From Escherichia coli (GTDB taxonomy: Bacteria; Pseudomonadota; Gammaproteobacteria; Enterobacterales; Enterobacteriaceae), in assembly GCF_030384885.1 (NCBI RefSeq), contig NZ_CP128613.1: DNA of 64,000 nt, one strand, 5' to 3'. Below, piece by piece: positions 18,394 through 34,280 of the stretch. Position numbers and translations under genes: made by a program. The notes beneath the pieces were generated by a model. That model did no database searches. It saw nothing but the letters and a program-made list of their open reading frames with translations, and was not told the DNA's origin. How positions within the stretch are numbered: position 1 is the first letter of the stretch; every line of letters begins with the position of its first letter.

Positions 18394-20418
<2,025 letters not shown>

Positions 20419-20419
20419 G

Positions 20420-20638
20420 ATGGAAAAAGAGCAGCTGATTGAAATAGCCAATACGATAATGCCGTTTGGCAAATACAAAGGGCGTCGCTTAATCGACCTG
20501 CCGGAGGAGTATCTTCTGTGGTTTGCCCGCAAAGATGAGTTCCCGGCAGGGAAGCTCGGTGAGCTAATGCAAATCACGCTGCTGATTAAAACCGAGGGGC
20601 TGACGCAACTGGTCCAGCCCCTGAAACGCCCACTTTAA
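20420..20638 (+). CDS. ypeB: Small conserved protein (DUF3820-like)
   Basis: 72-aa ORF MEKEQLIEIANTIMPFGKYKGRRL... starting 2 nt after the ligA stop; track ORF 20327.. is an in-frame upstream extension overlapping ligA. Confidence 0.6.
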   Translation: MEKEQLIEIANTIMPFGKYKGRRLIDLPEEYLLWFARKDEFPAGKLGELMQITLLIKTEGLTQLVQPLKRPL

Positions 20639-21633
20639 GCTTTATCGGCGCTGCTTTCCTGCTGCGCCTGTAACTGTTCGGTCTGGCGTTTGTATCGACG
20701 CGCCAGCACCGCACAGACCATCAATTGGATCTGATGGAAAATCATCAGAGGCAGCACCATCATACCGATCACCGATGTGGGGAACAGAATGTTTGCCATC
20801 GGGATGCCATTTGCCAGACTCTTTTTCGAACCACAAAAGACGATAGTAATTTCATCTGCCTTATTGAAGCCCAGTCGGCGTGCCATAAAGACGTTAACTA
20901 CAATCACGATAGCCAGAAGAACGCAGCTAACCACCACGATAAATAGCAATGATCCCCAGCCAACTTTATGCCAGATGCCGTTAACGACGGCTTCGCTGAA
21001 CGCAGTATAAACCACCAACAGAATGGACGTCTGGTCAGTTTTCGCAATCCATTTTTTATTTCGTGATACCCAGTTGCCAATCCAAGGGCGAGAAAGATGT
21101 CCCAGCACAAATGGCAGCAACAGTTGCAGCATAATTTTACCGACCTGCTCAAGGCTGCCCCCTGCACCGTGAACATTCATCACCAGACCAACCAGCAATG
21201 GTGAAAGGAAAATCCCCAGCAGGCTGGATGCTGACGCAGAACAAACCGCCGCCGCGACGTTACCGCCCGCCATTGACGTGAAGGCGATTGCAGACTGCAC
21301 GGTCGCGGGGAGAATGCACAAGTAGAGAAAACCGGAGTAGAGCATCGGGTCGACATTTACCGGTTTCCACCAGGCAAACAGCACGCCCAAAATTGGGAAC
21401 AGCACGAAGGTGCTGCACATTACCCACAAATGCAGTCGCCAATGACCACCGCCTGCAATAATCGCCTCTCGCGATAACTTCGCGCCGTGCATAAAGAACA
21501 GCAGAGCAATGGCTGCGGTAGTCAGATTTTCAAAGAAGGGAACGAAATCGCCCCTGGCCGGAAAGAAAGAGGCCAGCAACACCACCGTGATCAGGGTTAA
21601 GGTGAAAGGATCGAGGATACGAAAAAGTTTCAT
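20635..21633 (-). CDS. yfeH: Bile acid:sodium symporter (BASS) family membrane transporter
   Basis: 332-aa polytopic membrane ORF; divergent from the LysR regulator yfeR. Confidence 0.75.
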   Translation of the reverse strand: MKLFRILDPFTLTLITVVLLASFFPARGDFVPFFENLTTAAIALLFFMHGAKLSREAIIAGGGHWRLHLWVMCSTFVLFPILGVLFAWWKPVNVDPMLYSGFLYLCILPATVQSAIAFTSMAGGNVAAAVCSASASSLLGIFLSPLLVGLVMNVHGAGGSLEQVGKIMLQLLLPFVLGHLSRPWIGNWVSRNKKWIAKTDQTSILLVVYTAFSEAVVNGIWHKVGWGSLLFIVVVSCVLLAIVIVVNVFMARRLGFNKADEITIVFCGSKKSLANGIPMANILFPTSVIGMMVLPLMIFHQIQLMVCAVLARRYKRQTEQLQAQQESSADKA

Positions 21634-21722
21634 AAAGACTCCAGATGATCGATGGTTCTATTGTGCTTCTTCCAGTTTGAGAAATAAAATTGATTTATTG
21701 CATCCATTCATGAAGAAAAAAG

Positions 21723-22649
21723 ATGAATTATTCTTTAAAGCAATTAAAGGTTTTCGTCACAGTAGCGCAGGAGAAAAGTTTTAGTCGTGCAGGAGAGCGT
21801 ATCGGCCTGAGCCAGTCGGCAGTGAGTCACAGTGTGAAGGAGCTGGAAAATCATACTGGTGTTCGCCTGCTGGACAGAACCACGCGTGAAGTGGTGCTTA
21901 CAGATGCAGGGCAGCAGTTGGCTTTGCGTCTTGAGCGACTGCTGGATGAACTTAACAGCACGTTGCGCGATACCGGGCGTATGGGGCAACAACTGAGCGG
22001 AAAAGTTCGGGTCGCTGCCAGCCAGACCATTTCCGCGCATCTTATTCCGCAATGCATTGCTGAAAGCCATCGCCGCTATCCAGATATTCAGTTTGTCCTG
22101 CACGATCGTCCGCAGCAGTGGGTGATGGAAAGTATTCGCCAGGGAGATGTCGATTTTGGCATCGTCATCGATCCAGGCCCAGTGGGCGATCTGCAATGTG
22201 AAGCGATTCTTTCCGAGCCTTTCTTTCTGCTTTGCCATCGCGATAGCGCTTTGGCCGTGGAAGATTATGTACCCTGGCAAGCATTACAGGGAGCGAAATT
22301 GGTGTTGCAGGATTACGCGTCAGGCAGCCGACCGCTGATTGACGCAGCGCTGGCGCGCAATGGTATTCAGGCGAATATTGTGCAGGAGATTGGTCATCCG
22401 GCGACGCTGTTCCCGATGGTAGCCGCAGGCATCGGCATCAGTATTCTTCCCGCACTGGCGCTACCATTGCCTGAAGGTAGCCCGCTGGTGGTAAAGCGCA
22501 TTACGCCGGTGGTTGAACGCCAGTTGATGCTGGTGCGCAGGAAGAACCGTTCACTTTCCACCGCCGCTGAAGCGTTATGGGACGTAGTACGAGACCAGGG
22601 CAATGCGCTAATGGCTGGGCGGGAAGGGGATCCGTTGTATCAGATATAG
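21723..22649 (+). CDS. yfeR: LysR-family transcriptional regulator
   Basis: 308-aa ORF with N-terminal HTH ([14 protein letters not shown]) and LysR substrate-binding domain. Confidence 0.75.
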
Positions 22650-22687
22650 AGTGAATTCATACTGCCGGGAGCTCCGGCAGTAATCAA

Positions 22688-23452
22688 TCAAAAATTAAAT
22701 TTGATGGAGTAGATTATCGCATCCTGGTAAAAATCTTCGCCCAGTTTGTCATCCGCATAACGATACTGAATCCCTGTGGTGATGTGTGAAGTTGCATTCC
22801 ACCAAAGTGCGACGGCACCATTCAGACCTTCTTTGCCGCCATTACCTGCCGCGTAGGTGGCATCACGATCAAACTCGTACTCGTTCCAGTTGGTGAGGGT
22901 GAATTTCTCACTGCCCAGCATAAAGCTGTAACCTGCAACCCAACCGGCGACATAACCGTTATCGCCGGTATAATAGGTTTGGTCTGTATAGCGTTTTGCA
23001 AAGAACGGTTTGAACCACCAACCGCTGCCGGTGAAATTGTAGCCGATCCCGTAAAGGAACATATCGTCATGGAAATTCACACGATTCGCAGAACCGTAGG
23101 TGCCATACGCATGCAAGTAGAGATTAAATCCGGTGTCACCCAGGTAAATACGGTTGGTATTTTTAAATGTATAACGCTGCTCGCTACCCTGTTTATCATG
23201 ACGATCATTATAAAAGTTTTCCCAGTCGAAGAACCCGTACATTTCTCCCCAACTAAAGTTAGCGCCGCCTTCCAGTTCCAGATATCCAAAATCATCTTTG
23301 TGTGATTTGGTCGACGATTTCTCAGTGGTTCTGCTAGTCCAGTCAAGATAATGAATACCTATATCAGCAAAACCGCCTTTAAATTCTGCATGGGATACTG
23401 CTGGTATCGCCAATACAGAAGAGAGTGTCAGAGTAAAAAGATGTTTTTTCAT
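22688..23452 (-). CDS. yfeN: Outer-membrane beta-barrel protein (Tsx/OmpK-like)
   Basis: 254-aa ORF with signal peptide, aromatic-rich, C-terminal Phe; coordinates taken from track. Confidence 0.65.
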   Translation of the reverse strand: MKKHLFTLTLSSVLAIPAVSHAEFKGGFADIGIHYLDWTSRTTEKSSTKSHKDDFGYLELEGGANFSWGEMYGFFDWENFYNDRHDKQGSEQRYTFKNTNRIYLGDTGFNLYLHAYGTYGSANRVNFHDDMFLYGIGYNFTGSGWWFKPFFAKRYTDQTYYTGDNGYVAGWVAGYSFMLGSEKFTLTNWNEYEFDRDATYAAGNGGKEGLNGAVALWWNATSHITTGIQYRYADDKLGEDFYQDAIIYSIKFNF

Positions 23453-23700
23453 AGCATAATTCCCTATGCCGATCGTTATTAGTTGATTGCTTAATAAAAA
23501 GGTTGATTAAAAGCGGCATATTGTTAATGCAAGGGAAAGGAGAGTACCAATACAGTTTTTTCAGCCTATTAATAGTGAAAAAATATAAATATATCGATAT
23601 CGAATAACTATCGGATACATGAAAAAAGTGTATTGGTATGAGGTAGGGCAATCTCGTTATAAAAAGGCGTTAGATTCCACCCTACAAAAAAAGGATATAT

Positions 23701-24534
23701 ATGTATCAGGCTCAGTTTTCTCATAACCCACTGTATTGCGTAGATATTATCAAGACTTATAAACCTGATTTCACGCCACGAGTGGCCTTTATTTTAGGTT
23801 CCGGGCTGGGCGCGCTGGCCGATCAGATTGAGAACGCGGTCGCAATTTCCTACGAAAAGCTGCCTGGGTTCCCGGTAAGTACCGTACACGGTCATGCGGG
23901 TGAGCTGGTGCTGGGTTATCTCCAGGGGGTGCCAGTGGCGTGCATGAAAGGTCGCGGACATTTCTACGAAGGTCGTGGGATGACCATCATGACGGATGCA
24001 ATCCGTACCTTTAAGTTGCTGGGCTGCGAGTTGCTGTTCTGCACCAATGCGGCTGGCTCACTGCGTCCTGAAGTGGGGGCCGGCAGTCTGGTCGCATTGA
24101 AAGATCACATCAACACCATGCCGGGAACGCCGATGGTGGGTCTTAATGATGAACGTTTTGGTGAGCGCTTCTTCTCGCTGGCGAATGCCTACGATGCGGA
24201 ATACCGCGCACTGTTACAAAAAGTGGCGAAAGAAGAGGGGTTCCCTCTGACGGAGGGCGTGTTCGTCTCGTATCCGGGGCCGAATTTCGAGACTGCGGCG
24301 GAAATTCGCATGATGCAAATTATTGGTGGGGATGTTGTTGGTATGTCTGTGGTGCCTGAGGTTATTTCAGCTCGCCATTGCGAACTTAAAGTCGTTGCGG
24401 TCTCTGCGATTACCAACATGGCGGAAGGTCTGAGTGACGTGAAGCTTTCTCATGCCCAAACGCTGGCAGCAGCGGAACTCTCAAAGCAAAACTTTATTAA
24501 TCTTATTTGCGGCTTTCTGCGCAAAATTGCCTGA
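23701..24534 (+). CDS. xapA: Xanthosine phosphorylase (purine nucleoside phosphorylase II)
   Basis: 277-aa PNP-family ORF recognised as XapA. Confidence 0.9.
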   Translation: MYQAQFSHNPLYCVDIIKTYKPDFTPRVAFILGSGLGALADQIENAVAISYEKLPGFPVSTVHGHAGELVLGYLQGVPVACMKGRGHFYEGRGMTIMTDAIRTFKLLGCELLFCTNAAGSLRPEVGAGSLVALKDHINTMPGTPMVGLNDERFGERFFSLANAYDAEYRALLQKVAKEEGFPLTEGVFVSYPGPNFETAAEIRMMQIIGGDVVGMSVVPEVISARHCELKVVAVSAITNMAEGLSDVKLSHAQTLAAAELSKQNFINLICGFLRKIA

Positions 24535-24594
24535 GTAAAACAACAATAAACGGCCTCACTGAGTGAGGCCATATGATGCGACAAGGAAACGATT

Positions 24595-25851
24595 ATGAGC
24601 ATCGCTTTGCGCTTAAAGGTAATGTCTTTTTTGCAATATTTTATCTGGGGGAGCTGGCTGGTTACCCTCGGTTCTTACATGATTAATACCCTTCATTTCA
24701 CCGGCGCTAATGTTGGCATGGTTTACAGTTCCAAAGGGATCGCCGCGATTATTATGCCTGGTATAATGGGGATCATCGCAGACAAATGGCTGCGTGCAGA
24801 ACGTGCATACATGCTGTGTCACCTGGTGTGTGCAGGCGTACTTTTTTATGCGGCATCCGTAACTGATCCGGATATGATGTTTTGGGTGATGTTAGTCAAT
24901 GCGATGGCGTTTATGCCGACTATTGCGTTATCGAACAGCGTCTCTTATTCCTGTCTTGCCCAGGCAGGGCTTGACCCGGTGACCGCTTTCCCGCCCATTC
25001 GCGTTTTTGGTACGGTGGGGTTCATTGTCGCCATGTGGGCAGTAAGCCTGCTGCATCTGGAATTGAGTAGTCTGCAACTGTATATCGCGTCCGGTGCGTC
25101 ATTGCTGCTGTCGGCTTATGCGCTGACTTTGCCGAAGATTCCGGTTGCGGAGAAAAAAGCGACTACATCGCTTGCCAGCAAGCTGGGTCTGGATGCCTTC
25201 GTGCTGTTTAAAAATCCACGCATGGCTATCTTTTTCCTCTTCGCCATGATGCTGGGTGCGGTGCTGCAAATTACCAACGTTTTTGGCAACCCGTTCCTGC
25301 ATGATTTCGCCCGTAATCCTGAGTTTGCTGATAGCTTCGTGGTGAAATATCCGTCCATTTTACTGTCAGTTTCACAGATGGCTGAAGTCGGTTTCATTCT
25401 GACGATACCGTTCTTTTTGAAGCGTTTCGGTATTAAAACCGTCATGCTGATGAGTATGGTGGCGTGGACGCTGCGCTTTGGCTTCTTTGCCTATGGCGAT
25501 CCATCACCAACCGGGTTTATTTTGCTGTTGCTGTCGATGATTGTTTACGGTTGTGCATTCGATTTCTTCAATATTTCTGGTTCGGTCTTTGTCGAACAGG
25601 AAGTTGATTCCAGCATTCGTGCCAGCGCCCAGGGCCTTTTTATGACGATGGTAAATGGCGTCGGCGCATGGGTTGGCTCGATTCTGAGCGGTATGGCAGT
25701 GGATTACTTCTCGGTGGATGGCGTAAAAGATTGGCATACCATTTGGCTGATGTTTGCAGGGTATGCTCTTTTCCTCGCAGTGATATTTTTCTTTGGGTTT
25801 AAATATAACCATGACCCTGAAAAGATAACGCATCGTTCAGTTACACATTAA
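24595..25851 (+). CDS. xapB: Xanthosine permease (MFS nucleoside:H+ symporter)
   Basis: 418-aa 12-TM ORF downstream of xapA. Confidence 0.9.
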   Translation: MSIALRLKVMSFLQYFIWGSWLVTLGSYMINTLHFTGANVGMVYSSKGIAAIIMPGIMGIIADKWLRAERAYMLCHLVCAGVLFYAASVTDPDMMFWVMLVNAMAFMPTIALSNSVSYSCLAQAGLDPVTAFPPIRVFGTVGFIVAMWAVSLLHLELSSLQLYIASGASLLLSAYALTLPKIPVAEKKATTSLASKLGLDAFVLFKNPRMAIFFLFAMMLGAVLQITNVFGNPFLHDFARNPEFADSFVVKYPSILLSVSQMAEVGFILTIPFFLKRFGIKTVMLMSMVAWTLRFGFFAYGDPSPTGFILLLLSMIVYGCAFDFFNISGSVFVEQEVDSSIRASAQGLFMTMVNGVGAWVGSILSGMAVDYFSVDGVKDWHTIWLMFAGYALFLAVIFFFGFKYNHDPEKITHRSVTH

Positions 25852-25903
25852 AAGGATTCGCAGCTCTGTTCCTTGGGGCTGCTTTTATGATAAAGGTTAA
25901 TTA

Positions 25904-26062
25904 GTGAAAGATATTTTATTTTCTTCTGGCGTTGGTTTTGGCATTGGTGCTTTGTTTACAATCGTGCGATTACCTATTCCTGTTCCAAATGTATTGCCGG
26001 GTATATTATCCATCGTGTTTATGTATGTCGGATATCTGGTGGTGAAATACTTTATGCCATGA
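25904..26062 (+). CDS. Small hydrophobic protein, XapX-like (52 aa, GTG start)
   Basis: My own translation: MKDILFSSGVGFGIGALFTIVRLPIPVPNVLPGILSIVFMYVGYLVVKYFMP*; below the 60-aa cutoff of the track; aagg about 8 nt upstream; I recall a XapX-domain family of small membrane proteins next to xapB. Confidence 0.45.
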   Translation: MKDILFSSGVGFGIGALFTIVRLPIPVPNVLPGILSIVFMYVGYLVVKYFMP

Positions 26063-26102
26063 TAATTTAATACGATGTATTTTTTATATGGAGCACTTAA
26101 TT

Positions 26103-26987
26103 ATGGAACGCGTATATAGAACAGATCTTAAGTTGCTCCGTTATTTTCTTGCCGTAGCGGAAGAGTTGCATTTTGGTCGCGCAGCAGCGCGTTTAAATAT
26201 GTCTCAGCCTCCGCTCAGTATTCATATTAAAGAGCTGGAAAATCAACTCGGCACGCAGCTTTTTATTCGCCATTCGCGCAGCGTCGTACTGACACACGCG
26301 GGCAAAATCTTGATGGAAGAATCGCGTCGATTGCTGGTGAATGCAAATAATATATTGGCTCGGGTTGAACAAATAGGTCGGGGAGAAGCAGGGCGGATTG
26401 AACTCGGGGTTGTGGGAACGGCAATGTGGGGACGGATGCGCCCGGTTATGCGGCGATTCCTTAGAGAAAATCCTAACGTTGAAGTTCTGTTTCGCGAAAA
26501 GATGCCCGCGATGCAAATGGCCTTGCTGGAACGCCGCGAACTTGATGCCGGGATCTGGCGAATGGCGACAGAACCACCGACTGGTTTTACCAGCTTACGG
26601 TTGCATGAATCGGCGTTTCTGGTGGCGATGCCTGAAGAGCATCATCTCTCATCATTTTCCACCGTCCCGCTGGAAGCGCTACGTGACGAGTATTTCGTTA
26701 CAATGCCGCCCGTGTACACTGACTGGGATTTTTTGCAGCGAGTTTGCCAGCAGGTGGGATTTTCACCGGTTGTTATTCGCGAAGTTAATGAACCGCAAAC
26801 GGTACTCGCCATGGTCAGTATGGGTATTGGTATCACATTGATAGCGGACAGCTACGCGCAGATGAACTGGCCCGGTGTCATATTCCGTCCGCTCAAAGAA
26901 CGCATCCCGGCAGACTTATATATTGTTTATGAAACGCAGCAGGTGACGCCCGCGCTGGTTAAACTGCTGGCGGCGTTGGCGCAGTAG
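26103..26987 (+). CDS. xapR: LysR-family activator of xapAB
   Basis: Track ORF trimmed to MERVYRTDLKLLRYF... giving 294 aa. Confidence 0.85.
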   Translation: MERVYRTDLKLLRYFLAVAEELHFGRAAARLNMSQPPLSIHIKELENQLGTQLFIRHSRSVVLTHAGKILMEESRRLLVNANNILARVEQIGRGEAGRIELGVVGTAMWGRMRPVMRRFLRENPNVEVLFREKMPAMQMALLERRELDAGIWRMATEPPTGFTSLRLHESAFLVAMPEEHHLSSFSTVPLEALRDEYFVTMPPVYTDWDFLQRVCQQVGFSPVVIREVNEPQTVLAMVSMGIGITLIADSYAQMNWPGVIFRPLKERIPADLYIVYETQQVTPALVKLLAALAQ

Positions 26988-27017
26988 ATGAGAGGCACGG
27001 GAACTGCCGGACATAGT

Positions 27018-27044
27018 TGGTCTGATAAGCGAAGCGCATCAGGC
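27018..27044. repeat. REP-like palindrome
   Basis: ctgataagcgaagcgcatcag palindromic sequence typical of REP elements. Confidence 0.4.
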
Positions 27045-27057
27045 AATTTCGCAAATT

Positions 27058-27114
27058 GCAGATAGCAAAAAAGCGCCTTTAGGGCGCTTTTTTACATTGG
27101 TGGGTCGTGCAGGA
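27058..27114. repeat. 57-bp direct repeat copy 1 (terminator hairpin plus 17-nt 3' end of tRNA-Lys)
   Basis: Identical to 27214..27270; contains aaaaaagcgcctttagggcgctttttt and tggtgggtcgtgcagga. Confidence 0.8.
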
Positions 27115-27213
27115 TGACTCGCTTCGCTCGCCCTTCGGGCCGTCGCCGCGAGCGGCTCCGTTGTTTCGCTGCGCTCAACTCGAACCTGCTGCAGGTTCGA
27201 ATCTTTGAGTATC

Positions 27214-27270
27214 GCAGATAGCAAAAAAGCGCCTTTAGGGCGCTTTTTTACATTGGTGGGTCGTGCAGGA
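27214..27270. repeat. 57-bp direct repeat copy 2 (overlaps the genuine lysV 3' end and its terminator)
   Basis: Exact 57/57 identity with 27058..27114 by direct comparison. Confidence 0.8.
27223..27250 (-). terminator. Rho-independent terminator of the valU-valX-valY-lysV operon
   Basis: On minus strand gcgcc-ctaaa-ggcgc hairpin followed by tttttt immediately after lysV CCA. Confidence 0.7.
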
Positions 27271-27329
27271 TTCGAACCTGCGACCAATTGATTAAAAGTC
27301 AACTGCTCTACCAACTGAGCTAACGACCC
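27254..27329 (-). tRNA. lysV: tRNA-Lys (UUU)
   Basis: Reverse complement reads GGGTCGTTAGCTCAGTTGGTAGAGCAGTTGACTTTTAATCAATTGGTCGCAGGTTCGAATCCTGCACGACCCACCA. Confidence 0.9.
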
Positions 27330-27333
27330 GAAG

Positions 27334-27409
27334 TGGTGGGTGATGACGGGATCGAACCGCCGACCCCCTCCTTGTAAGGGAGGTGCTCTCCCAGCTGAGC
27401 TAATCACCC
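27334..27409 (-). tRNA. valY: tRNA-Val (UAC)
   Basis: Reverse complement reads GGGTGATTAGCTCAGCTGGGAGAGCACCTCCCTTACAAGGAGGGGGTCGGCGGTTCGATCCCGTCATCACCCACCA; 4 nt from lysV. Confidence 0.9.
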
Positions 27410-27455
27410 ACTTCGGTACTTCACATTTTTACAAGAAATCTAGCTGGCGAGAAAG

Positions 27456-27531
27456 TGGTGGGTGATGACGGGATCGAACCGCCGACCCCCTCCTTGTAAG
27501 GGAGGTGCTCTCCCAGCTGAGCTAATCACCC
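27456..27531 (-). tRNA. valX: tRNA-Val (UAC)
   Basis: Second identical tRNA-Val copy. Confidence 0.9.
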
Positions 27532-27574
27532 ACTTCTCAATTTCTTGCTACACGGCGGAGACTACATAAGTAGT

Positions 27575-27650
27575 TGGTGGGTGATGACGGGATCGAACCG
27601 CCGACCCCCTCCTTGTAAGGGAGGTGCTCTCCCAGCTGAGCTAATCACCC
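27575..27650 (-). tRNA. valU: tRNA-Val (UAC)
   Basis: Third identical tRNA-Val copy, first gene of the operon. Confidence 0.9.
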
Positions 27651-27908
27651 CCGCTGTGTGGAGTCGCATTATAGGGAGAGTTCAAAATGAGTCAACGCAT
27701 TTTCTAAAGAAATTGTTCGTTCGTCGTAAATTTAAGCAAGATGATCGCAAAACAGACCGTGTTGCGCAATTTCTCAACGAAAACAATAATGCATCATGTA
27801 GCAACCCGAACTACATTGAGGAATCAGGCGGGAGTGATAGAATATCGCCCACTCAATTTTTCCAGGATTTGCCGGTTGTCGGCATCTTTCTAAACGTAAG
27901 GCCATTTC

Positions 27909-29324
27909 ATGAAAATCAAAACTCGCTTCGCGCCAAGCCCAACAGGCTATCTGCACGTTGGCGGCGCGCGTACTGCTCTTTACTCCTGGCTTTTTGCACG
28001 TAACCACGGCGGTGAGTTCGTGCTGCGTATTGAAGACACCGATCTTGAGCGTTCCACGCCGGAAGCTATCGAAGCCATTATGGATGGTATGAACTGGCTG
28101 AGCCTGGAGTGGGATGAAGGTCCGTACTTCCAGACCAAACGTTTTGATCGCTACAACGCGGTGATCGATCAGATGCTGGAAGAGGGCACAGCTTATAAAT
28201 GCTATTGCTCTAAAGAGCGCCTGGAAGCGCTGCGTGAAGAGCAAATGGCAAAAGGTGAGAAACCACGTTATGACGGTCGTTGCCGCCACAGCCATGAGCA
28301 TCACGCTGATGATGAACCGTGCGTTGTACGTTTTGCTAACCCGCAGGAAGGTTCCGTTGTTTTTGACGATCAGATCCGTGGTCCGATCGAGTTCAGCAAC
28401 CAGGAGCTTGATGATCTGATTATCCGTCGTACCGATGGTTCCCCGACCTATAACTTCTGTGTGGTTGTCGATGACTGGGATATGGAAATCACCCACGTTA
28501 TCCGTGGCGAAGACCATATCAACAACACGCCACGCCAGATCAACATTCTTAAAGCCCTGAAAGCGCCGGTACCGGTTTACGCGCACGTTTCTATGATCAA
28601 CGGCGATGACGGTAAAAAACTGTCCAAACGTCACGGGGCGGTCAGCGTAATGCAGTATCGTGATGATGGTTATCTGCCTGAAGCACTGCTGAACTATCTG
28701 GTGCGTCTGGGCTGGTCCCACGGCGATCAGGAAATCTTCACTCGTGAAGAGATGATTAAATACTTCACTCTGAATGTCGTCAGCAAATCTGCCAGTGCGT
28801 TCAACACCGACAAGCTGCTGTGGCTGAACCATCACTACATTAACGCGTTGCCGCCGGAGTATGTTGCTACTCATTTACAGTGGCACATTGAGCAGGAAAA
28901 TATCGATACCCGTAACGGCCCGCAGCTGGCTGATCTGGTGAAACTGCTGGGCGAACGCTGCAAGACGCTGAAAGAGATGGCTCAGAGCTGCCGTTATTTC
29001 TACGAAGATTTTGCTGAGTTCGATGCCGACGCCGCGAAAAAACATCTGCGTCCGGTAGCGCGTCAGCCGCTGGAAGTGGTTCGTGACAAACTGGCCGCGA
29101 TTACTGACTGGACCGCTGAAAACGTTCATCACGCTATTCAGGCGACGGCGGATGAGCTGGAAGTGGGTATGGGCAAAGTTGGTATGCCGCTGCGTGTCGC
29201 CGTAACCGGTGCGGGGCAATCTCCGGCACTGGATGTTACCGTTCACGCAATCGGTAAGACCCGCAGTATCGAGCGTATCAACAAAGCGCTGGCTTTTATT
29301 GCGGAACGCGAAAATCAGCAGTAA
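27909..29324 (+). CDS. gltX: Glutamyl-tRNA synthetase
   Basis: 471-aa class I aaRS with HVGG (HIGH-type) and KLSKR (KMSKS-type) motifs; divergent from the tRNA operon. Confidence 0.95.
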
Positions 29325-29342
29325 TTAGCGCATAAAAGATAA

Positions 29343-29371
29343 ACGGCAGGAGAGATACCCCTGCCGTTTTT
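29343..29371. terminator. Rho-independent terminator after gltX
   Basis: cggcagg...cctgccg hairpin followed by tttttt. Confidence 0.6.
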
Positions 29372-29374
29372 TAT

Positions 29375-29767
29375 TTATTCTGATTCATCTATGTCGAGAC
29401 GAGCAAGGAAATGACGAATTCCTTCACGTGACAAAAATTGCGCAACTTTTTCCTGCTCACTGTGAGTCATGTTGTCTATTGCGCTGATGATTTGCCGATA
29501 AGCGGGAGTGCGAATCCCCGGTGCATATTCGGCAAGGGGTTCTTCGGCTTCCAGAAGCATCGGCGTGTTATGGAAGGCTGGTGTATTCTGAATAAACTCG
29601 CAAACTTGCGTATCGATCAGAATAAGTCTGGCGCGACCGCCTTTCACGCCGGGAAATTTTTCCGTTTTCCAGCCTTTCTCTCTGATCCAACGGTTAACAG
29701 TTTGTTTAGCCACACCGAGGCATTCCGCCAGTTCTTCGGTGGTCATTTTATTGCGTAATCTTTTCAT
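29375..29767 (-). CDS. yfeD: Small putative DNA-binding protein, paralog of YfeC
   Basis: 130-aa ORF; N-terminal HTH-like segment clearly similar to the adjacent yfeC product. Confidence 0.7.
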   Translation of the reverse strand: MKRLRNKMTTEELAECLGVAKQTVNRWIREKGWKTEKFPGVKGGRARLILIDTQVCEFIQNTPAFHNTPMLLEAEEPLAEYAPGIRTPAYRQIISAIDNMTHSEQEKVAQFLSREGIRHFLARLDIDESE

Positions 29768-29768
29768 A

Positions 29769-30128
29769 TTATTTGCTATCGCGAATCCCTAAGCGTTGTA
29801 ATAACCCGATAATCCCTTCCCGCAGAAGCAAGGATGTAAACTGTTTTTGTTCAACTGGCGTCATCTCTTTCGCCAGTGTCACCAGTAACACTTCAAGCGG
29901 CGTATCACCAGACAGGGCAGGTGCTTCTCCCTGACCTTCCGGACGTTCAGCATTGCGAATATATTCACGAACCTGTTCATTGACGTGAACCAGTCTGGCT
30001 TTGCCACCCTGGACGCCTGGTTTTGGTGACGTCGTCCAGCCTTCCTTGCGTACCCATTTATTAATGGTCTGACGGCTATAACCGGTCAGTCTGGCAAGTT
30101 CATCTGGCGTCATCCTCTCCTTGAACAT
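29769..30128 (-). CDS. yfeC: Small putative DNA-binding protein, paralog of YfeD
   Basis: 119-aa ORF immediately upstream of yfeD (1-nt gap), same strand. Confidence 0.7.
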   Translation of the reverse strand: MFKERMTPDELARLTGYSRQTINKWVRKEGWTTSPKPGVQGGKARLVHVNEQVREYIRNAERPEGQGEAPALSGDTPLEVLLVTLAKEMTPVEQKQFTSLLLREGIIGLLQRLGIRDSK

Positions 30129-30348
30129 AACAATTCCCTGAATGTATGTAGGTCTATTAGCGGTTCATTTTATAACACCACTTTACAGGAAACCGTGACA
30201 TGAATAACTACTGAATGCGAGCGGTTTTCCAAAATTGTTCATTTGCCTGATTTTTCAGCGATTGAAACTACACGCTGCAATTTGCCGTTGACACATTCGG
30301 GCGGAATTCATATGATGCCGCCCGTCAACTCGACAAGCTTTACGTGAT

Positions 30349-30424
<76 letters not shown>

Positions 30425-30463
30425 AATTTTGCACCCAGCAAATTTGGTACGTAAACGACTCGT

Positions 30464-30539
<76 letters not shown>

Positions 30540-30546
30540 AATTTCA

Positions 30547-30575
30547 AACCCTCGCTGTAAAGCGGGGGTTTTTTG
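30547..30575 (+). terminator. Terminator-like hairpin after alaW
   Basis: ccctcgc-tgtaaa-gcggggg followed by tttttt. Confidence 0.5.
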
Positions 30576-30745
30576 TCTCTGCCTTTTGCCGCTTTTGTAA
30601 TACAGTCTACATCCTGGCAGTGCCGTGTGGTGAATGCATCACTGACTGAAAAAACAGCAACAGGCTGGCCCCTGTTTGCTTCGCGATGCGAATAAACTTA
30701 TTATTTGTGTGCCTGAAAACCCCGATCAGTGAGAGTAGTGTACTC

Positions 30746-32935
30746 ATGTTTGTGGAGCATAACCTGATAAAAAATATCAAGATATTCACACTAGCGTTTA
30801 CGCTCACCGTGGTACTTATTCAGCTATCCCGTTTTATTTCGCCACTTGCCGTTATCCATTCCAGTTATATCTTTTTGGCGTGGATGCCACTGTGCGTAAT
30901 GCTGGCAATCTTGTTTATCTTTGGCTGGCGCGGTGTCGTTCCTGTTTTAGGCGGGATGTTTTGCACCAATCTGTGGAATTTTCATCTCTCTTTTTTACAG
31001 AACTCCGTCATGCTCGGCAGCCAGACGTTTGCAGTCCTGTGTGCCTGTGCAATATTACGCTGGCAATTGGGAACGCGTTGGCGTTATGGTTTGACCAGCC
31101 GATACGTCTGGCAACGTCTCTTCTGGCTTGGTTTGGTGGCACCGATTGGCATCAAATGCAGCATGTATCTTGTGGGGAATTTCTTTGATTTTCCGCTAAA
31201 GATATCTACCTTTTTCGGCGATGCGGATGCCATTTTCACGGTCGTTGATTTGCTAAGCCTTTTCACCGCAGTGCTGATTTACAACATGCTGTTTTACTAT
31301 CTCACCCGCATGATTGTAAGTCCCCACTTTGCGCAGATCCTGTGGCGCAGGGATATCGCTCCGTCGTTGAGCAAAGAGAAACGCGTATTTACCTTAAGCT
31401 GGCTGGCAGCTCTTAGCGTGCTGCTACTTCTGATGTGTACACCGTATGAAAATGACTTCATTGCCGGTTACCTGGTACCTGTTTTCTTTATCATCTTTAC
31501 CCTCGGGGTCGGTAAGCTTCGCTATCCGTTTTTAAATCTCACCTGGGCTGTTTCAACGCTTTGCCTTCTGAATTACAACCAGAACTTTTTGCAAGGGGTA
31601 CAAACCGAATATTCGCTGGCATTTATTCTCGCGGTGCTGATTTCCTTTAGTGTTTGCCTGCTCTATATGGTGCGCATTTATCATCGTAGTGAATGGCTTA
31701 ACCGACGCTGGCATTTGCAGGCGCTGACCGATCCGTTAACGCTCTTACCCAACTTTCGCGCGTTGGAACAAGCACCAGAGCAAGAGGCTGGCAAGAGTTT
31801 TTGCTGCCTGCGTATTGATAACCTTGAGTTTATGAGTCGTCATTACGGGTTAATGATGCGCGTTCACTGTATCCGCTCAATTTACCGTACGTTAATGCCG
31901 CTGATGCAGGAAAACGAAAAGTTGTATCAATTGCCGGGGAGTGAACTGCTATTAGTACTGAGCGGGCCGGAAACGGAAGGGCGACTCCAGCATATGGTTA
32001 ACATCCTGAATAGTCGGCAAATTCACTGGAACAATACCGGGCTGGATATGGGCTATGGTGCTGCCTGGGGGCGTTTTGATGGAAATCAGGAAACCCTGCA
32101 ACCCTTGTTGGGGCAGTTAAGCTGGCTGGCGGAGCAATCCTGCGCACATCATCATGTGCTGGCGCTGGATAGCAGAGAGGAGATGGTTTCCGGGCAGACC
32201 ACTAAACAGGTGCTATTGCTGAATACCATTCGCACGGCGTTAGATCAGGGGGATTTGCTGCTCTACGCCCAGCCAATTCGCAACAAAGAGGGTGAAGGTT
32301 ATGATGAGATCCTCGCGCGACTGAAATATGACGGCGGCATTATGACCCCGGATAAGTTTCTGCCCCTTATTGCTCAGTTTAACCTTAGCGCGCGTTTTGA
32401 TTTGCAAGTGCTGGAATCCCTGTTGAAGTGGCTGGCAACACACCCCTGCGACAAGAAAGGTCCGCGCTTTTCAGTCAATTTAATGCCGCTCACGCTGCTG
32501 CAAAAAAATATTGCCGGGCGGATTATTCGTCTGTTTAAGCGTTATCACATCTCCCCGCAGGCGGTCATTCTTGAGATCACCGAGGAACAGGCGTTTTCTA
32601 ACGCAGAAAGCAGTATGTACAACATCGAGCAGCTGCATAAGTTTGGTTTCCGGATTGCGATTGATGATTTTGGCACCGGCTATGCCAACTACGAACGGCT
32701 AAAGCGTTTGCAGGCTGATATCATTAAAATTGATGGCGTCTTTGTGAAAGATATCGTCACGAACACGCTGGATGCGATGATTGTGAGATCAATTACCGAT
32801 CTGGCGAAAGCGAAGTCATTGAGTGTGGTCGCGGAGTTTGTCGAGACGCCACAGCAGCAGGCGCTATTGCATAAGCTCGGGGTGCAATATCTGCAAGGGT
32901 ATTTGATTGGTCGCCCTCAGCCATTAGCTGATTAA
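30746..32935 (+). CDS. pdeA: c-di-GMP phosphodiesterase with degenerate GGDEF and EAL domains and N-terminal MASE membrane domain
   Basis: Track ORF trimmed to MFVEHNLIKNI... giving 729 aa; multi-TM N-terminus and EAL-type C-terminus. Confidence 0.75.
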   Translation: MFVEHNLIKNIKIFTLAFTLTVVLIQLSRFISPLAVIHSSYIFLAWMPLCVMLAILFIFGWRGVVPVLGGMFCTNLWNFHLSFLQNSVMLGSQTFAVLCACAILRWQLGTRWRYGLTSRYVWQRLFWLGLVAPIGIKCSMYLVGNFFDFPLKISTFFGDADAIFTVVDLLSLFTAVLIYNMLFYYLTRMIVSPHFAQILWRRDIAPSLSKEKRVFTLSWLAALSVLLLLMCTPYENDFIAGYLVPVFFIIFTLGVGKLRYPFLNLTWAVSTLCLLNYNQNFLQGVQTEYSLAFILAVLISFSVCLLYMVRIYHRSEWLNRRWHLQALTDPLTLLPNFRALEQAPEQEAGKSFCCLRIDNLEFMSRHYGLMMRVHCIRSIYRTLMPLMQENEKLYQLPGSELLLVLSGPETEGRLQHMVNILNSRQIHWNNTGLDMGYGAAWGRFDGNQETLQPLLGQLSWLAEQSCAHHHVLALDSREEMVSGQTTKQVLLLNTIRTALDQGDLLLYAQPIRNKEGEGYDEILARLKYDGGIMTPDKFLPLIAQFNLSARFDLQVLESLLKWLATHPCDKKGPRFSVNLMPLTLLQKNIAGRIIRLFKRYHISPQAVILEITEEQAFSNAESSMYNIEQLHKFGFRIAIDDFGTGYANYERLKRLQADIIKIDGVFVKDIVTNTLDAMIVRSITDLAKAKSLSVVAEFVETPQQQALLHKLGVQYLQGYLIGRPQPLAD

Positions 32936-32996
32936 CAGGCGTAAAAAAAGCAGGGAATTATCCCCGGCTTTTGTGGCTGATGACAAACAGAAAAAT

Positions 32997-33025
32997 GCCT
33001 GATGCGCTACGCTTATCAGGCCTAC
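32997..33025. repeat. REP element
   Basis: gcctgatgcgctacgcttatcaggcctac, classic REP palindrome, flanked on both sides by hairpin-T-tract terminators. Confidence 0.55.
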
Positions 33026-33037
33026 ATGGAATTGAAG

Positions 33038-33055
33038 CCGGGGAATTATCCCCGG
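33038..33055. other. Palindrome ccGGGGaattatCCCCgg matching the GGGG(N6)CCCC target preference of IS186; unoccupied here
   Basis: Sequence read directly; a degenerate copy GGG-aattat-CCCC lies at about 32953..32965. Confidence 0.5.
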
Positions 33056-33077
33056 CTTTTTAATTAATGAATTGGAC

Positions 33078-34280
33078 TTACAGCACCAGTGCTGCGATTG
33101 ACGCAGACAGCACACTCACCAGAGTAGAGCCGTAAACCAGTTTCAGACCGAAGCGAGAAACCACGTTACCTTGCTCTTCATTCAGGCCTTTAACCGCACC
33201 GGCGATAATCCCGATAGAAGAGAAGTTAGCGAAGGAAACCAGGAACACGGAGATGATGCCTTCAGCACGCGGAGAGAGCGTGGAAGCGATTTTCTGCAGA
33301 TCCATCATCGCAACGAACTCGTTGGAAACCAGTTTGGTCGCCATAATACTGCCCACCTGCAGTGCTTCACTGGAAGGAACACCCATCACCCACGCAACCG
33401 GATAGAAGATGTAGCCCAGGATGCCCTGGAAGGAGATGCTGTAGCCAAACCAGCCAGTCACAGTGGCAAACAGTGCGTTCAGCGCAGCGATCAGGGCGAT
33501 AAAGCCGATCAGCATCGCGGCAACGATAATGGCAACTTTGAAACCTGCCAGAATGTATTCACCCAGCATTTCGAAGAAGCTCTGACCTTCGTGCAGGTTG
33601 GACATCTGAATGTTTTCTTCACTGGCATCAACACGGTAAGGGTTGATCAGCGACAGCACGATAAAGGTGCTGAACATGTTCAGTACCAGCGCCGCAACGA
33701 CGTATTTCGGCTCCAGCATCGTCATGTATGCACCAACGATGGACATCGACACGGTGGACATCGCCGTAGCTGCCATGGTGTACATACGATTGCGGGAGAT
33801 TTTGCCGAGGATATCTTTATAGGCAATAAAGTTTTCAGACTGACCCAGAATCAGAGAGCTGACGGCGTTGAAGGATTCCAGTTTGCCCATACCGTTGACT
33901 TTGGAGAGCAGGAAACCAATTGCGCGGATAATCACCGGCAACACGCGAATGTGCTGGAGAATACCGATCAGCGCAGAGATAAAGACGATTGGGCACAGCA
34001 CTTTCAGGAAGAAGAATGCCAGGCCTTGATCATTCATGCTACCAAAGACGAAGTTAGTCCCTTCGTTGGCAAATCCGAGCAGTTTCTCAAACATTTCGGA
34101 GAAGCCTTTCACGAAGCCCAAACCAACGTCGGAGTTCAGGAAGAACCACGCCAGTAACACTTCGATAACAAGCAGTTGAATAACATAACGGATACGAATT
34201 TTTTTGCGGTCGCTGCTTACCAGCAGTGCGAGAATCGCAACAACGGCAAGTGCCAGTACAAAATGAAGGACGCGGTCCAT
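33078..34280 (-). CDS. nupC: Nucleoside:H+ symporter (CNT family)
   Basis: Track ORF trimmed to [20 protein letters not shown]... giving 400 aa. Confidence 0.9.

Follow-up and report, generated by a model that had tools for sequence, protein, structure and literature searches.

An unoccupied IS186-type target palindrome and a rare REP-containing allele in the pdeA-nupC spacer of Escherichia coli

The convergent genes pdeA and nupC of Escherichia coli are separated by a short spacer that carries an IS186 copy in MG1655 and an uninterrupted GC-rich palindrome in the chromosome studied here. Is this palindrome the empty form of the MG1655 insertion site, or a transcription terminator that merely resembles one? 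We analyzed the spacer within a 64-kb stretch of DNA, hereafter the window. Our preferred reading, to which we assign a probability of about 0.93, is that the intact palindrome would combine two roles, intrinsic-terminator stem and natural IS186 hot-spot target, and that it stands empty here in a derived allele that appears to have been lengthened by 88 bp.

Layout of the spacer and its two hairpins

The tested segments of the window are 100% identical to the chromosome of E. coli 2013C-4282 (NZ_CP027579.1, in which coordinates equal the window position + 4501). The statement in the initial annotation that the strain is not MG1655-identical is thus true but trivial. pdeA and nupC converge on a 142-bp spacer, and mntH lies beyond nupC (Table 1). 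Upstream of pdeA there are two tRNA-Ala(GGC) genes in the window (30349-30539), as in MG1655, and three in tandem in strain Z0117EC0005 (locus 338-643).

Table 1. Features of the pdeA-nupC spacer and its flanks (window coordinates)
Feature	Position	Strand	Sequence or context	Basis or remark
pdeA (yfeA) CDS, cyclic-di-GMP phosphodiesterase	30746..32935	+	stop at 32935	ORF list; RefSeq annotation NZ_CP027579.1 35247-37436
pdeA-nupC spacer	32936..33077			142 bp
Spacer start	A7 = 32943-32949		CAGGCGT, then A7	
Hairpin 1	32950-32968		GCAGGGAATTATCCCCGGC	A7 before, T4 after (32969-32972)
Direct repeat, copies 1 and 2	32953-72 and 33041-60		GGGAATTATCCCCGGCTTTT	exact, 20 nt, offset 88 bp
REP unit	32973..33036		GTGGCTGATGACAAACAGAAAAAT, then REP, then ATGGAATTGAA	64 bp
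REP core	32997-33025		GCCTGATGCGCTACGCTTATCAGGCCTAC	exact match; GTAG on - strand
Hairpin 2	33037-33056		GCCGGGGAATTATCCCCGGC	perfect palindrome; T5 after (33057-33061)
Unoccupied IS186 target	33040..33053		GGGG(AATTAT)CCCC = GGGGAATTATCCCC	sole motif match in window; MG1655 junctions; occupied genomes; published motif
Predicted IS186 target duplication	33042-33051		GGAATTATCC	
Spacer end	between hairpin 2 T5 and nupC stop		AATTAATGAATTGGAC	
nupC CDS, nucleoside:H+ symporter	33078..34280	-	stop at 33078	ORF list; annotation NZ_CP027579.1 37579-38781

The spacer had been described as a REP element flanked by two hairpin-T-tract terminators, and the order of hairpin, REP and hairpin is accurate. 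That description overlooked that the two hairpins share an exact direct repeat, that the arrangement is a rare and apparently derived allele, and that IS186 is found in hairpin 2 only. The hairpins and T-tracts it named are present, but it also missed that the good U-tracts are arranged crosswise. On the - strand, which is transcribed with nupC, hairpin 1 is followed by U7 and hairpin 2 by UUCAAUUCC; on the + strand, transcribed with pdeA, the tail is U4-GUGG after hairpin 1 and U5 after hairpin 2. The weak tails are accordingly those of hairpin 2 on the - strand and of hairpin 1 on the + strand.

Hairpin 2 is predicted to fold at -20.4 kcal/mol (z -5.3); the value for hairpin 1, with its one internal mismatch, is -13.1 kcal/mol (z -2.2; -13.1 / -12.6 kcal/mol). 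The only terminator-like site returned by a terminator scan is hairpin 1 on the - strand (32966..32951). Hairpin 2 on the + strand was not flagged, probably because greedy stem extension consumes its T-tract. Hairpin 1 is probably the effective nupC terminator, and hairpin 2 on the + strand is a terminator-like structure that may serve pdeA, in which case each gene would use the distal hairpin. Since the hairpin with the good U-tract is the distal one for either gene, the REP probably lies in the predicted 3'UTR of both mRNAs. With one palindrome a copy of the other, the whole spacer can also fold as a long-range stem that encloses the REP (-49.7 kcal/mol, z -4.4). A search of 32500-33500 against Rfam at E <= 1 found no known RNA family; sub-threshold matches to anti-hemB (24.9 bits, gathering score 49.5) and MicX (24.7 bits, gathering score 75) were rejected as chance matches.

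In single-hairpin strains the palindrome lies between A6-7 and T5-6, an architecture that would act as a bidirectional terminator. The window shares with bidirectional Rho-independent terminators a GC-rich perfect stem, an upstream A-tract, a downstream T-tract, a position between two stop codons and a structure conserved in relatives. It differs from them in that the hairpin is duplicated, and a transcript from either side is predicted to meet a hairpin with a poor U-tail, then the REP, and then a hairpin with a good tail.

The palindrome as a target of IS186

IS186 uses the motif 5'-GGGG(N6/N7)CCCC-3' in either orientation, and K-12 has only 19 N6 and 35 N7 sites of this kind (Lee et al. 2016, PMC5009759); the motif is also quoted in PMC6925257. 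In the 64-kb window GGGGNNNNNNCCCC occurs once, inside hairpin 2, and the proposal that the nupC-proximal hairpin fits the IS186 motif is correct (the hairpin sequence originally quoted, ccGGGGaattatCCCCgg, spans 33038-33055). Hairpin 1, a degenerate copy of the palindrome, does not fit the motif: one G is missing from its left arm (GCAGGG), which leaves GGG only. By itself the match is statistically unremarkable in 64 kb: the chance expectation is 0.52 per window, and 37 of 100 shuffled sequences contained at least one. What gives the match weight is that it is orthologous to actual sites of insertion.

MG1655 provides such a site. As the initial annotation states, there is an IS186 copy between nupC (b2393) and yfeA/pdeA (b2395) in this strain, namely IS186C (insL3, b2394; 2514273-2515617). 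Its junctions read ...AAAAAAACCGGGGAATTATCC / CATAAGCGC...GCGCTTATG / GGAATTATCCCCGGCTTTTTT..., or ...GATTAACAGGCGTAAAAAAACCGGGGAATTATCC / CATAAGCGCTAACTTAAGGGTTG...CAACCCTTAAGTTAGCGCTTATG / GGAATTATCCCCGGCTTTTTTATG... in the orientation of the window. IS186C lies inside the orthologous palindrome CCGGGGAATTATCCCCGG, and GGAATTATCC is repeated at both junctions. The suggested alignment to MG1655 therefore shows what had been anticipated, an IS186 insertion with a target duplication within a GGGG(N6)CCCC palindrome. By the RefSeq boundaries the duplication is 10 bp, and up to 12 bp are formally possible because the terminal C/G of IS186 is ambiguous.

Removing IS186C and one copy of GGAATTATCC from MG1655 gives AAAAAAACCGGGGAATTATCCCCGGCTTTTTT. 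The MG1655 target is orthologous to both hairpins of the window, since its left flank matches that of hairpin 1 and its right flank that of hairpin 2. The two loci are orthologous and share the core GGGGAATTATCCCC, with the window in the pre-insertion state. They differ in that the window site is unoccupied, has G in place of A ahead of CCGGGG, carries TTAATTAATGAATTGGAC instead of TTTATGTATGGTC as the nupC-side flank, and contains an extra 88 bp, a REP unit and a second hairpin copy, that MG1655 lacks.

The window had been proposed to represent the empty site, and it does so because the palindrome is continuous and a search that tolerated up to 3 mismatches found no IS186 terminal repeat anywhere in the window. 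The duplication predicted for an insertion here would be GGAATTATCC. An empty site is unsurprising in this background, because the 2013C-4282 chromosome has no match to an IS186 probe: when an internal 250-nt IS186 probe was combined with a strain-specific pdeA segment, this chromosome record, the one replicon of the strain that was covered, was hit in one place only, at pdeA. The empty state thus simply reflects a chromosome without IS186. With the same probe the median E. coli genome has zero IS186 places. Strain 2017-02-2CC (NZ_AP027764.1), which has the identical pdeA segment and is the closest at the locus, has seven IS186 places and an empty pdeA-nupC site.

We surveyed 5,426 complete E. 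coli genomes for occupied forms of the locus. A junction probe made of the pdeA flank and one IS186 end, in the MG1655 orientation, was covered to at least 80% in 479 genomes; the pdeA flank joined to the other IS186 end, which reports the opposite orientation, was found in 467. A by-product of a chimeric probe gave 465 genomes for this second orientation. Consistent with the sum of 479 and 467, the match to the locus ends at window position 32964 in about 966 genomes. IS186 therefore occupies the pdeA-nupC palindrome in ~17% of complete genomes, about one in six, in nearly equal orientations and with GGAATTATCC on each side. These values count genomes rather than events, and they overstate the number of independent insertions because of clonal over-representation, especially of K-12 laboratory derivatives, which are likely many among the 479 genomes with the MG1655 orientation. 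At least two insertion events per allele class are strictly demonstrated by the opposite orientations.

The same holds for the allele seen in the window. Among the 17 genomes that carry the REP allele (see below), five contain IS186, each with its match to the window broken off at the same base inside hairpin 2. None of the five has IS186 in hairpin 1, and the choice of the nupC-proximal hairpin as the target was thus the right one. E200086 and Z0117EC0005 both carry IS186 in hairpin 2, with the transposase on the - strand in the former and on the + strand in the latter, and their junctions are identical (...GCCGGGGAATTATCC / CATAAG...CTTATG / GGAATTATCCCCGGCTTTTTAATTAATG). In E600003, also of the REP allele, the chimeric probe places IS186 in the + orientation. 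The REP allele provides direct evidence that IS186 has entered the exact sequence of 33040-33053 at least twice independently.

A rival account holds the palindrome to be a bidirectional intrinsic terminator only and its fit to the IS186 motif to be a coincidence of no relevance. In its favor, distant Enterobacteriaceae, whose loop sequences differ, conserve a hairpin with A/T tracts as a structure downstream of nupC, and the chance expectation of the motif is not small. However, IS186 sits in the exact palindrome in 946 + 5 genomes and in both orientations. A terminator role does not preclude a target role, and the occupied orthologous sites refute termination as the exclusive explanation, which we regard as very improbable.

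We favor the dual reading, in which the palindrome at 33037-33056 would be the intrinsic-terminator stem common to the convergent pdeA and nupC, as its structure and U-tracts suggest, and would at the same time serve IS186, a member of the IS4 family, as a natural hot-spot target. The transposase would recognize the GC arms of GGGG(N6/N7)CCCC, as the work of Lee et al. (2016, PMC5009759) suggests, and insertion would duplicate the core and adjacent bases. Of the two hairpin copies, the nupC-proximal one alone retains a complete GGGG arm, and occupation by IS186 was seen in no other copy. From these comparative data we infer that the site in the window could be used by IS186 in the same way. 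The locus shares with the hot spots of Lee et al. (2016, PMC5009759) an N6 core between GGGG and CCCC, insertion in both orientations and repeated use of one site. It differs in that those were de novo events, whereas use of the pdeA-nupC site is deduced from natural isolates. This site could not figure among their events, as it was already filled in their K-12 background.

The lon promoter is reportedly a further IS186 hot spot, in work by SaiSree and colleagues from 2001. A 289-bp contig of 1.4x coverage in an Alkalicoccobacillus porphyridii assembly (NZ_VLXZ01000152.1) contains an E. coli pdeA-nupC spacer with a K-12-type flank and an empty site, and is almost certainly E. coli contamination.

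A rare allele with a REP unit and a second hairpin

The typical E. coli spacer, for example that of ST131, is 49 bp long and has one hairpin and no REP. By contrast with this common form, the whole spacer of the window is matched by only 12 of the 5,426 genomes. A 44-nt probe from the 5' flank of the REP unit was found in 17 genomes, always at the pdeA-nupC locus, and in one plasmid-labelled record. This record, NZ_CP098226.1 (pZ0117EC0005-3, 50 kb), repeats xapR, tRNA, gltX, yfeCD, alaX, pdeA and IS186 at 20167-32322. Nearly all genes in the repeated region are frameshifted, and the record probably represents a duplicate contig rich in errors, or an artefact of assembly, rather than a real mobilization.

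The REP core on the - strand (33025-32997) reads GTAGGCCTGATAAGCGTAGCGCATCAGGC and consists of GTAG-GCCTGATAAGCGTAGCGCATCAGGC, 29 nt in total. It has the GTAG and the imperfect palindrome of REP elements, is extragenic, and belongs to a high-copy sequence type: there are >190,000 REP-related places in the E. coli genomes, with a median of at least 40 per genome. RNA folding predicts a stem-loop on both strands. The GTAG convention and the length of 29 nt for z1 are those of the published class definitions (PMC8266576), and by its length the element resembles z1. A second, degenerate REP of the same subtype is present in the window at 27016-27044 (-), with 3 mismatches and GTTG in place of GTAG.

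Relatives of the REP unit that are ~90% identical and share its extended flanks (TG.GGCTGATGACAAAC...CCTACATGGAA) were found with a 72-nt probe at gudD-barA and cysQ-cpdB, and the cysQ-cpdB copy runs on into a BIME-1-like linker and a second REP. At this level of identity both copies are too divergent to be recent donors, and neither the 44-nt nor the 72-nt probe detected a closer one. Like known REP/BIME elements (y, z1 and z2; TnpA-REP/RAYT-associated), the element has GTAG and an imperfect palindrome, a length of 29 nt, a copy number in the hundreds per genome and shared extended flanks. Unlike them, it stands alone instead of pairing as REP/iREP, its presence is polymorphic, and it is bracketed by a 20-24-bp duplication of a host hairpin.

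By parsimony, the alignment suggests that the window has gained 88 bp over an ancestral single hairpin: 64 bp are the z1-like REP unit, and the other 24 bp repeat the hairpin and its T-tract. The segment is read as derived because a single hairpin without a REP is the state of most E. coli and of every outgroup in the sample. The outgroups were recovered with a degenerate pattern of the nupC 3'-end and comprise Escherichia sp. MOD1-EC7003, a divergent 'E. coli' species representative, Citrobacter, Pluralibacter, Enterobacter and Trabulsiella; every recovered locus has a single A-tract, hairpin and T-tract after nupC and lacks the REP. Escherichia is represented in this sample by the first two only. 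Flanking variants add to the picture: EC42405 joins the REP allele to an MG1655-like nupC flank, and in RMDEC465 a single hairpin lies between window-like flanks. The REP allele is thus found on at least two flank haplotypes.

The polarity could also be reversed, with the two-hairpin and REP form ancestral and the single hairpin left over once the 20-nt direct repeats had recombined out the DNA between them. At a distance of 88 bp, direct repeats lend themselves well to slippage or to deletion independent of RecA, and the single hairpin of RMDEC465 in window-type flanks could be such a product. However, about 5,400 of the 5,426 E. coli genomes have no trace of the REP-unit flank at the locus, ST131 among the single-hairpin strains, and the outgroup loci are uniformly of the simple type. 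In addition, all single-hairpin alleles are free of the lesion in hairpin 1 (GCCGGGG to GCAGGG), although it could be hidden if a deletion had kept the left arm of copy 2. We consider ancestry of the longer form improbable.

Another possible origin of the paired hairpins is the footprint that IS186 or another IS would leave by inserting and then excising imprecisely, given that a direct repeat encloses the added segment at a site known as an IS186 target. However, the repeat measures 20-24 bp and takes in the T-tract, whereas the IS186 duplication is 10 bp, and the intervening 64 bp are a REP unit with paralogs elsewhere in the genome. No IS186 terminal-repeat sequence is present even with 3 mismatches allowed. 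The excision footprint was rejected on repeat length and the missing terminal repeat, and it is the least probable of the alternatives considered here.

Gain of the 88 bp by a single-hairpin ancestor thus remains our preferred reading. We speculate, tentatively and with more doubt than confidence, that the addition is a snapshot of REP dissemination, in which a REP landed just 3' of the intrinsic terminator and the target hairpin was duplicated. If true, this event would, as a by-product, have given the IS186 hot spot a second copy that is now in decay. The duplication signature would also fall outside the predictions of the HUH/TnpA-REP single-strand model. HUH/IS200-type single-strand transposition is not known to duplicate its target.

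Relation to known IS186 and REP biology

The empty site is a real finding, it was read correctly, and it is known biology: the MG1655 copy of IS186 is annotated, the motif is published, and the site is an ordinary empty one. A literature search that joined IS186 with nupC found no paper. The locus illustrates the target specificity of IS186 in textbook fashion, with the window showing its pre-insertion state, and the main value lies in a check of correctness. Only the rare allele with a REP and a duplicated hairpin is slightly new. That allele may interest work on the spread of REP elements, which is still poorly understood (PMC8266576). The spacer could also be used as a three-state typing marker, with a single hairpin, a hairpin-REP-hairpin arrangement, or an IS186 copy in either orientation. 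An occupancy of ~17%, with insertions in both orientations, places the palindrome of pdeA and nupC, presumably also their shared terminator, among the sites that IS186 uses recurrently in natural E. coli.
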